Positions 18,001 through 21,000 of a stretch of DNA of 64,000 nt are shown one piece after another. Position 1 is the first letter of the stretch. Each line of letters starts with the position of its first letter. Where the stretch lies: NCBI RefSeq assembly GCF_041886205.1, contig NZ_CP169029.1. One strand, 5' to 3'. Made by a program: the position numbers. This stretch comes from Escherichia coli (GTDB lineage Bacteria; Pseudomonadota; Gammaproteobacteria; Enterobacterales; Enterobacteriaceae).

Positions 18001-21000
18001 CCCGACTGTTAGACGTGCGGTTTTCAGGAGAAGCCAGCGAGCAGGGATTAACAACTTTTCTTGATGCTTTTGATGAGTCCAGTCACTGGGTTTTAGTTGT
18101 ACCATTATCACCCGGCTTACTTCCTTTTAAAAAATGCCGGGTAACAACGGCGGAACTGGCAGAAACAACATTACCTGCGTCGCAAGTACTGGTGGTTGAA
18201 AATGAGCAGTGTCTGCATCATCTTCCAGCATTATCTGACACTATCGCGATTTTAGGCTGTGGCCTGGACGTGCAATGGCTATCCAGTTCTGTTCTGGATG
18301 AAAAACGCGTTGCTTATTGGGGGGACATGGATAGCTGGGGATTACTGATGCTGGCGAGAGCCAGGCGCTGTCGTCCGACGCTTGATGCCCTGCTCATGAA
18401 CCGTGAGTTGTTTGAGCAGTATGCCAGTCATAGCGCCGTTCCAGAACCGGTCATAGCGAAGGAAGCTGTACCTGATGGCTTGCTTAACGAAGAGGCCGAT
18501 TTTTATCGCTACTTAACCCGTTTACCGTGTGGTCGTCTGGAGCAGGAGTTTTTGCCAGTGGGGATTGCGGAAGAGGTGCTTCTCAGGTGGGGAAAAGAGA
18601 GTTAAAAAAGTCATGCTTGCTCTGGAAGGTTATTTACGCGGTATTTTGTAGTGGTTGTTGCGAAAGTCTGCGTTGATGGTCCTGATACCTTACCGGGTAG
18701 AGGGACTTTCCATCAGTCAGTTTAGATACTGTGGCAACTGTCGCCTTTAGGTGGACAAATGCATAAATTATTAAACTATTAAATTTCTTGTTTTCAGGCA
18801 GCAGAGAGAAGGTATATCAGAGGGTACTGAGGTGTATAAACGTCACGAACATCCGTGAAAAGGCGAAAAAAACCAGCCAATAGATAATGCTTTGCAATGG
18901 CCAGAAATCTACCGTAGCCAGAAAGTGAAAAAGCCCCGCTTTGCAGCGAGGCCTTATGAATAGTGGTGCCGGACTCGGAATCGAAGAATGCTTCTATCAT
19001 GTTGATATTATTTTATTTTGTTTGGTTTGGTGAAATATGTACCCTCTTTTGTACCCGCAGTCCCTTTTGATATCGAAAGGGAATCAAACTCGGGGTCAGG
19101 CTGAGAGCACAGAAGGAAAGTGCCTGGCTATTATATCGTTAATTCTGTCAATCAGCTCCAGCCTTTTGAAAGTGATGTGTGCAGATCCACCCTTCTTAAA
19201 GTATTTAATGATGAACATCTCATCTTCATAGCGTCCTTTACCCTGAACGGACTGTATGTGGTCATCCAGATTAATGGTGATATTCCCTCGGTTGTCGGGG
19301 ATCGGTTTACCGCTGAGCAGATGCAACATTCTTTCCAGGTCAGCCAGGCGATCTGCCTGCATTCCACTGATAAGATGAAATCTATGGTCACCCCCGTTTT
19401 TGCAACACTGATTTTTGATTAATGGTTGGCTTGCTTAAATCTATCCGGCGTCTCTGTGGGCAAGGATGCCCGCGCCCCGATGAGTTCCGCACCTGATAAT
19501 CCTAAAAATCCCCTCGGCTTCAGTGAGCCATTTCATCTGTTAGGTTTTTAATCAGGTCGATTTGCCGTTCATGTCATCAATAATCAGTCTTCGCAAAACC
19601 AGAAAGGTAACTTGTATCTTATTGTTTAAAATAAACTAATTGAGTTATATCAGCATCTATATCAGGCCTGATATTCTTTTTTCTGAGTAGTGATTGCCCA
19701 GGCAATTCGAGCCAGTTTATTTGCCAGAGCGCAGGTAACCACATTCGAATGCTTCTTGTTGAGTTGCTCCCGAACCCACTCAGCAAGTTTTCCATGCTTG
19801 CGTTCAAGTCGCATTATGAATGAGCGGGCACACTGAACCAGTAACCGGCGTAAATTTTTATCACCTCGCTTACTGATACCCAACAGAGTCGATTTTCCTC
19901 CAGTGCTATACTGCCGGGGAACAAGTCCTGTGGAAGCTGCAAAATCCCTGCTGCATGAGAACTGTTTCCCGTCACCAAGTTGCGACGATAGTAAGCTGGC
20001 AGTAATCGGACCAACACCAGGAATTGTCATAATGCGCTGAGCGGTATCATCAGCGTTGATTGACTGACTTAATTCTGATTCCAGCTCTGCTATTTGCTCA
20101 ACAAGGTAAAAGTAGTGGGTATGCAACCTCACCAAAAGGCGGCTCAGATATTCGGGGATTTCGTGTTCAGCCAACACGAGAGACAACCGTTTTATTACAG
20201 CATCACCTATCGGCAGGCTGATTCCAAATTCCAGCAAGAAACCGTGGATCTGGTTGGTTGTTTTCACTTTATCTCTGATGAGCGATTCTCTGACCCGGTG
20301 TAACGCCCTCATGGCCTGCTGGGTCTCAGTTCTTGGCTGGACAAAACGCATTGATGGTCGTGAAGCCGCTTCGCATATGGCTTCTGCATCAACAAAATCA
20401 TTCTTATTACTTTTGACAAACGGGCGAACGAACTGTGGAGAAATCAGCTTAGTTTCATGCCCAAAATCAGAGATACAGCGAGCCATAAAGTGTGCACCCG
20501 CACAGGCTTCCATTACAACAACTGAGGGCGGACATGTCGCCAGAAACTGCATCAGTTTAGTACGGGTAAATTTTTTACGCAGAAGAGCCTTACCAGACTT
20601 GTCTTGACAATGAATGTGGAAGGAGTGCTTTCCGAGATCGATACCAATAAGTGTGATGTTCTGCATGATGGTCTCTCCGTTAAAGGGATTTACCTTAACA
20701 GCGTACTGCTGTTAAGGTGGGGGTGACCATATCATTATCCCCACTGGTCCCATCTCACCAGATTGTTGACGATAATTTTACTGCCAAATTTACAGGGTGA
20801 GTTGGTTTTGTAATCCCAGCTCAGCCCTTTGAAGACGTTGATCACTCCCCGTTCAAACACTTCATCTTTGTTCTGGTGCAGTTGTTCAAATGTGCTCAGA
20901 ATGTTCGCTTCGCTGATTTCCGGAAAATTATCATATTCCAGTGACCTGGACCTGACTGAGGTGGAGCAGATAACGTCCGTATTCTCGTTGACCACTTCCG

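Follow-up and report, generated by a model that had tools for sequence, protein, structure and literature searches.

Genomic islands integrated in tRNA genes by tyrosine integrases of the P4 family carry, in their attP site, a copy of the 3′ end of the tRNA. In a stretch of 64,000 nucleotides of the Escherichia coli contig NZ_CP169029.1 (assembly GCF_041886205.1; hereafter the window), a solitary 22-nt piece of tRNA-Phe is found at 18964-18985. The question raised by this locus is whether the piece marks the distal junction (attR) of an island of this kind, whether such an island would be integrated at pheV or at pheU, and where its other end should be sought. We consider that 18964-18985 is the distal junction of a genomic island integrated at the tRNA-Phe gene pheV, and assign to this reading a probability of about 0.93. 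The evidence on which the assignment rests, and the alternatives against which it was weighed, are presented below.

Results

The 22-nt repeat and its origin in tRNA-Phe

The 22-mer TTCGATTCCGAGTCCGGCACCA corresponds exactly to the minus strand of the window at 18964-18985. This is its single match in the 64 kb, even when up to 3 mismatches are tolerated; there are no matches in 100 dinucleotide-preserving shuffles, and none is expected by chance. When the window is searched with the 23-nt 3′ end of tRNA-Phe, allowing as many as 4 edits, the sole site recovered is again 18964-18985. Alignment with intact tRNA-Phe genes (pheV of PT62 and pheU of ZYB39) identifies the 22-mer as the last 23 nt of the tRNA minus one G of a GGG run (GGG to GG), that is, the 3′ half of the T-arm, the 3′ strand of the acceptor and the terminal CCA; the identity with the tRNA begins exactly at the first T, which is the 5′ end of the 22-mer. 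The direct repeat of tRNA-Phe that forms the distal boundary of islands of the GI-pheV type is thus represented here by 22 of 23 nt with one deletion, and the same core is also found among published attR sites (see below). The original prediction, which had recognized on the minus strand a copy of the tRNA-Phe 3′ end lacking one G, proves accurate to the base in this alignment; it had also held that no complete tRNA surrounds the fragment, and a run of ARAGORN over the whole 64 kb detects no tRNA gene at all.

A further concern was that the 22-mer might be scattered over many unrelated genomic sites. Of 5426 complete E. coli genomes, 906 contain a 91-nt segment spanning the junction (18950-19040), and none of them has it at more than 2 places, which dispels this concern; in the same search of complete genomes the segment was never found on plasmids.

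The junction and its backbone side

The most direct view of the junction is provided by PT62, an island-free genome in which an intact pheV sits at exactly the position of the junction in the window. The order of features in PT62 is JetD remnant, terminator, intact tRNA-Phe (pheV), yqgA and speC. The similarity of this chromosome to the window, 99.8% over 17968-18985, stops at 18985, which is the inner edge of the 22-mer, and within the aligned part of the empty site the two sequences are identical from the repeat leftwards to about 18870. The break therefore occurs at the repeat, and the DNA retained on its backbone side is the native downstream DNA of pheV: a terminator scan locates a hairpin followed by a T-run at 18930-18955 (minus strand), and the same sequence directly follows pheV in PT62, so that the island has parted the native terminator from its tRNA gene. 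The whole backbone arm of attR is intergenic, extends from the JetD stop to the repeat (18606-18963), and was assigned from the PT62 match. On the other side of the repeat, the distal arm of the island (18986-19096) is conserved in the island family: the same arm adjoins the same 22-mer in the ZYB39 island at pheV, in the ZYB39 island at pheU and in MS20649, and the island side of the window matches islands of other genomes right up to the repeat. The repeat thus sets the distal island boundary to the base, at 18985/18986. Base composition gives no comparable mark: in 2-kb steps the GC content varies between 41 and 59% within the island, and it does not shift sharply where the island begins. 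Across the junction the window is matched at 100% identity by seven draft assemblies, all of which break off inside the island.

The left flank of the window consists of yghO, glcC, glcDEFGB and glcA (which extends to 11507), followed by a four-gene Wadjet system on the plus strand that occupies 11920-18605, between glcA and the pheV terminator, and provides the context outside the island. Its genes are JetA (11920-13416), JetB (to 14171), JetC (14168-17455) and JetD (17457-18605); the assignments derive from Pfam hits (DUF3375, JetB, AAA_29/SbcC_Walker_B, and DUF3322 with JetD_C, respectively) on contigs 100% identical to the window, and for JetD also from the RefSeq name Wadjet JetD. The same glc and Wadjet flank adjoins pheV-yqgA in both PT62 and wlxctx60. 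Judged from its distal flank, the near flank lying beyond the window, the locus is therefore that of pheV (yqgA-pheV ... glc) and not that of pheU (yjdC-pheU-cadC). The proposal that the repeat is the distal junction of a pheV-type island is in this way borne out by three lines of evidence: the end of the PT62 match at 18985, the glc and Wadjet flank, and the matches of the other side to islands elsewhere.

The possibility that Wadjet itself represents an older pheV island was considered and rejected, as a search tolerating up to 4 edits revealed no second tRNA-like repeat in the interval from glcA to Wadjet; for this reason Wadjet is placed on the backbone side. The repeat hence separates Wadjet, on the backbone, from the F17, CDI and Ag43 genes, which belong to the mobile island. 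With regard to the occupancy of the glcA-pheV interval, the Wadjet found there in the window is apparently intact; most E. coli (for example ZYB39 and MS20649) have sslE and the T2SS-beta genes at this place, and in other strains it is taken up by T6SS genes or by elements that encode an integrase. Coverage of 80% or more of window positions 11400-19100 is reached by only 8 of the 5426 complete genomes.

Cargo of the island between 18986 and 64000

It had been proposed that everything from the junction to the end of the window has island character, and the annotation is in full agreement: 18986-64000 is composed entirely of cargo and IS elements. Accessory cargo associated with mobility is abundant, and the IS elements, CbtA/CbeA, Ag43, AlpA, the F17 operon and cdiA are all absent from PT62. 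Next to the distal arm is a DUF4942 gene (19097-21025, minus strand; Pfam PF13708) split by ISSfl8, an element of the IS110 family whose transposase is encoded at 19662-20666 (PF01548/PF02371; NF033542). ISSfl8 extends from 19382 to 20734, and both islands of ZYB39, like many other genomes, have it at an identical position; either common descent or the target-site specificity for which IS110 elements are known could account for this. The DUF4942 gene of MS20649 is uninterrupted. There follows a yee module (21122-24911, minus strand) with genes for DUF957, DUF5983, the CbtA toxin (21816-22193), the CbeA/YeeU antitoxin (22240-22614), DUF987, RadC, an antirestriction protein and DUF932; these assignments rest on the ZYB39 annotation and on Pfam calls made on a contig that is 100% identical to the window over 7457-24482.

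The Ag43 autotransporter gene of the flu module was located by sequence comparison at 28491-31610 (minus strand). A small DNA-binding protein of the AlpA family (36581-36859, minus strand; Pfam PF05930, E = 2.4e-08) is a candidate recombination directionality factor (excisionase). An F17 chaperone-usher operon (f17G, usher, chaperone, f17A) occupies 51163-56088 on the minus strand and is 100% identical to an annotated region of ZYB39. Finally, cdiA, a CDI toxin gene with hemagglutinin repeats, starts at 57857 on the plus strand, is frameshifted, and runs off the window at 64000 (annotation transfer, with NCBIfam transposase hits); an IS186 element (IS4 family) at approximately 61555-62891, absent from ZYB39, interrupts the already frameshifted gene. 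Further cargo includes IrmA, a YeeR-like gene, a GTPase and YfjI. The IS elements of the island comprise ISSfl8, IS2, a member of the IS66 family and IS186, and several genes are broken. NCBIfam models applied to the window returned only transposase hits and weak hits to a few others, and were less informative than the Pfam hits on identical contigs; annotation transfer places no integrase gene within 18986-64000.

The far end of the island as read in relatives

From a distal repeat the location of the integrase and the intact tRNA can be predicted: they should stand at the opposite end of the island, beyond the window. In wlxctx60, which has the same glcA and Wadjet flank, a variant of the repeat (TTCAATTCCGAGTCC-GGCACCA) is followed by an 18-kb island and, beyond it, by a 420-aa tyrosine integrase of the P4 type, an intact tRNA-Phe and yqgA-speC: both the layout (repeat, island, integrase, tRNA-Phe, yqgA) and the orientation are those of the original prediction. 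In MS20649 a 100-kb GI-pheV displays, from the opposite direction, yqgA, tRNA-Phe, integrase ... F17, cdiA ... Ag43, yee, DUF4942, the same 22-mer and yghD; compared with window positions 19000-42395 its identity is 99.0% at 80% coverage. In these relatives the 420-aa integrase is composed of the domains Arm-DNA-bind_3, Phage_int_M and Phage_integrase, and an intact tRNA-Phe is present at the near boundary in wlxctx60, MS20649 and ZYB39 alike.

Among complete genomes ZYB39 comes closest to the window, and it is the only one essentially identical to it over 37-64 kb; both its pheV and its pheU are occupied by islands, and the two islands share the attR seen here. The ZYB39 island colinear with the window is bounded by exactly one pair of repeats, and the identical DNA continues for about 46.5 kb past the end of the window to an integrase and a tRNA-Phe, which in ZYB39 is at pheU. 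If the window is colinear with ZYB39, its own integrase and tRNA would be located approximately 46.5 kb beyond 64000, and the island would total about 92 kb, an estimate derived by sequence comparison. The exact arrangement of the window is found in no complete E. coli genome of the collections searched, and none spans the junction at 80% coverage or higher; exact-protein look-ups for JetD and for the Ag43 allele of the window returned draft contigs only, which break inside the island.

An integrase identical to that of ZYB39 (420 aa), surrounded by the same genes, is at pheU (on the yjdC/dsbD side) in 6 of the assemblies listed, and at pheV (on the yqgA/speC side) in at least 3 of those listed and in 5 further ones. 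Hence the ZYB39 integrase adjoins pheV or pheU depending on the assembly, and no listed assembly is tied to the lineage of the window. The tRNA at the far end of the island in the window is likely to be pheV.

Two arrangements in other genomes concern the use of the distal repeat as a target. In the tandem islands of GCA_012358895.1 (local positions 9780-10001), the end of a ParDE-DUF4942 island and a variant of the repeat, TTTCATTCCGAGTCCGGGCACCA, lead straight into the integrase-side arm and that same integrase of 420 aa, with no tRNA between; the distal repeat itself was apparently used as the attachment site. In ZYB39 the pheU attR (local positions 9287-9665) is followed, before cadC, by a hairpin like that of the integrase-side arm and by a 160-nt remnant of an integrase gene, apparently the vestige of an earlier island.

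Mosaic structure and alternative readings of the junction

Different segments of the window match different islands of ZYB39. Between 18953 and 28400 there is 1 difference to the pheV island of ZYB39, as compared with about 176 to its pheU island, and between 30401 and 31400 the corresponding counts are 0 and 214. From about 37 kb onwards the sequence is absent from, or diverged in, the ZYB39 pheV island, and it is the pheU island that is matched, with 0-1 differences per 500 bp between 37151 and 44000, and with 99.9-100% identity in all 1-kb pieces of 44001-64000, the IS186 insertion aside. At about window position 42656 ZYB39 has roughly 1.95 kb extra (IS100). On the strength of these alignments, the island of the window is a mosaic of the two islands of ZYB39, with a switch in or near the Ag43 gene. 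The simple reading of this pattern is modular recombination combined with horizontal spread, as described for GI-pheV; this reading is supported by the presence of the same integrase at pheV and at pheU, by the normal GI-pheV of MS20649, and by the normal flanks that the pheU island of ZYB39 has on both sides.

The same pattern might instead have arisen by homologous recombination between paralogous islands at pheV and pheU. The two genes flank oriC in opposite orientations, and such an event would have inverted the stretch between them: the repeat would then be the attR of a hybrid island whose far-end tRNA is pheU, and beyond it one would find yjdC/dsbD rather than yqgA. Both the division of the window between a distal part that matches the ZYB39 pheV island and a part (37151-64000) that matches its pheU island, and the tendency of draft contigs of this lineage to end within the yee and YfjI modules, a hint that the genome contains another island of this kind, would fit such a history. 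We nonetheless regard it as unlikely, since the core glc flank of the window is only 99.1% identical to that of ZYB39, and the strains are not a simple inversion pair; since the identical integrase and the same proximal genes are already known beside pheV-yqgA in the assemblies mentioned above; since the F17, cdiA, Ag43 and yee modules occur together in MS20649 within an ordinary GI-pheV; and since a literature search for a pheU-pheV inversion found none.

The number of IS elements and broken genes in the island could also be taken as a sign of decay, in which the near end (integrase, attL or both) was lost or rearranged by IS elements and the repeat survives as a fossil without a partner. This is very improbable: intP4 is the only gene conserved in all GI-pheV islands, being present in each of the 41 complete ones (PMC11537424), and ZYB39, wlxctx60 and MS20649 have all kept both integrase and tRNA. 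That the 22-mer is a chance match, or the stump of a tRNA-Phe destroyed by an unrelated insertion or deletion without site-specific recombination, is hardly credible. The absence of a full tRNA from the window agrees with it, and nothing more does; against it are the failure of all 100 shuffles to produce the 22-mer, the occurrence of the same 22-mer and island arm at both pheV and pheU, and in 906 genomes, and the position of the break with the empty site exactly at the boundary of the repeat.

Discussion

A model for the integration at pheV

Integration at pheV can be pictured in the light of the biology of the P4 family. The integrase of the island would have recombined an island-borne attP with the tRNA gene; at the near end (attL, past 64000) this would have rebuilt an intact tRNA adjacent to the integrase, and at attR it would have left the 22-nt copy, fused to the former pheV terminator and to the DNA downstream of it. 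The missing G offers some insight into the exchange. The GG version is common to the distal copies of this island family at pheV and pheU, the intact tRNA-Phe copies examined are all GGG, and in every repeat pair of the relatives the tRNA copy is GGG and the distal copy GG. Because the intact tRNAs have GGG and the distal copies have GG at both loci, the missing G is probably no local accident: the GG version probably travels on the attP of the island, and the pattern of GG and GGG suggests that strand exchange probably took place 3′ of the G run.

By analogy, excision would need attL, attR and the integrase, and probably the AlpA-family protein encoded at 36581-36859. Single mismatches between the repeats can lower the frequency of excision (PMC11537424), and the repeat of the window is imperfect.

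Relationship to known systems

Phage P4 integrates at leuX, and cryptic prophages of the CP4 type (CP4-44, CP4-57) are likewise found at the 3′ ends of tRNA genes. The island of the window resembles these elements in its tRNA 3′-end site, in its AlpA-type regulator and in the P4-family tyrosine integrase predicted beyond the window. It differs from P4 in being several times larger, in bearing adhesin and toxin cargo, and in the absence from the window of genes for phage structure or replication. The yee and flu genes are common to the island and to CP4-44 (PMC11537424).

The closest individual counterpart is the pheU island of ZYB39 (NZ_CP098234.1, 4,447,067 to about 4,539,300), which differs from window positions 37151-64000 by at most 1 difference per 500 bp and by one extra IS in each, and which has the same 22-mer attR and distal arm at one end and tRNA-Phe with the 420-aa integrase at the other. 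The two islands are distinguished by the site (pheU, with yjdC and cadC as flanks, in ZYB39), and by the region of CbtA/CbeA and part of Ag43, which in the ZYB39 pheU island are another allele (92% identity in places); the distal 10-13 kb of the window match the pheV island of ZYB39 and not its pheU island.

The family to which the island belongs is GI-pheV, catalogued in complete genomes by a recent study (PLoS Genet 2024, PMC11537424), in which Table 1 gives the attR as TTCGATTCCGAGTCCGG-CACCA, with the deletion marked, for APEC O1, S88, ED1a, H10407, 12009, CB9615, 55989, 042, 536, 11128, REL606 and other strains. Members of the family (for example PAI V of 536, and the islands of 55989, 042, H10407, 11128 and REL606) share with the window the same site and an identical attR, TTCGATTCCGAGTCCGG-CACCA with its deletion, as well as the flu (Ag43) and yee (CP4-44-like) modules beside attR and a mosaic evolution by recombination; the flu and yee modules in this position are described as prone to recombination (PMC11537424). 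The window departs from the known GI-pheV in its combination of cargo (F17 fimbriae together with a disrupted cdiA), and in its backbone flank, which is Wadjet and not sslE with the T2SS-beta genes; the integrases of the family fall into types intP4.1-4.5, and the gene predicted for this island would lie outside the window. Since the same attR, with the same missing G, is already tabulated in Table 1 of that study, the feature at 18964-18985 is an attR on record for pheV-integrated islands, and adds one more instance of a known structure: it is of value for annotation, and brings nothing new on how tRNA-integrated islands work.
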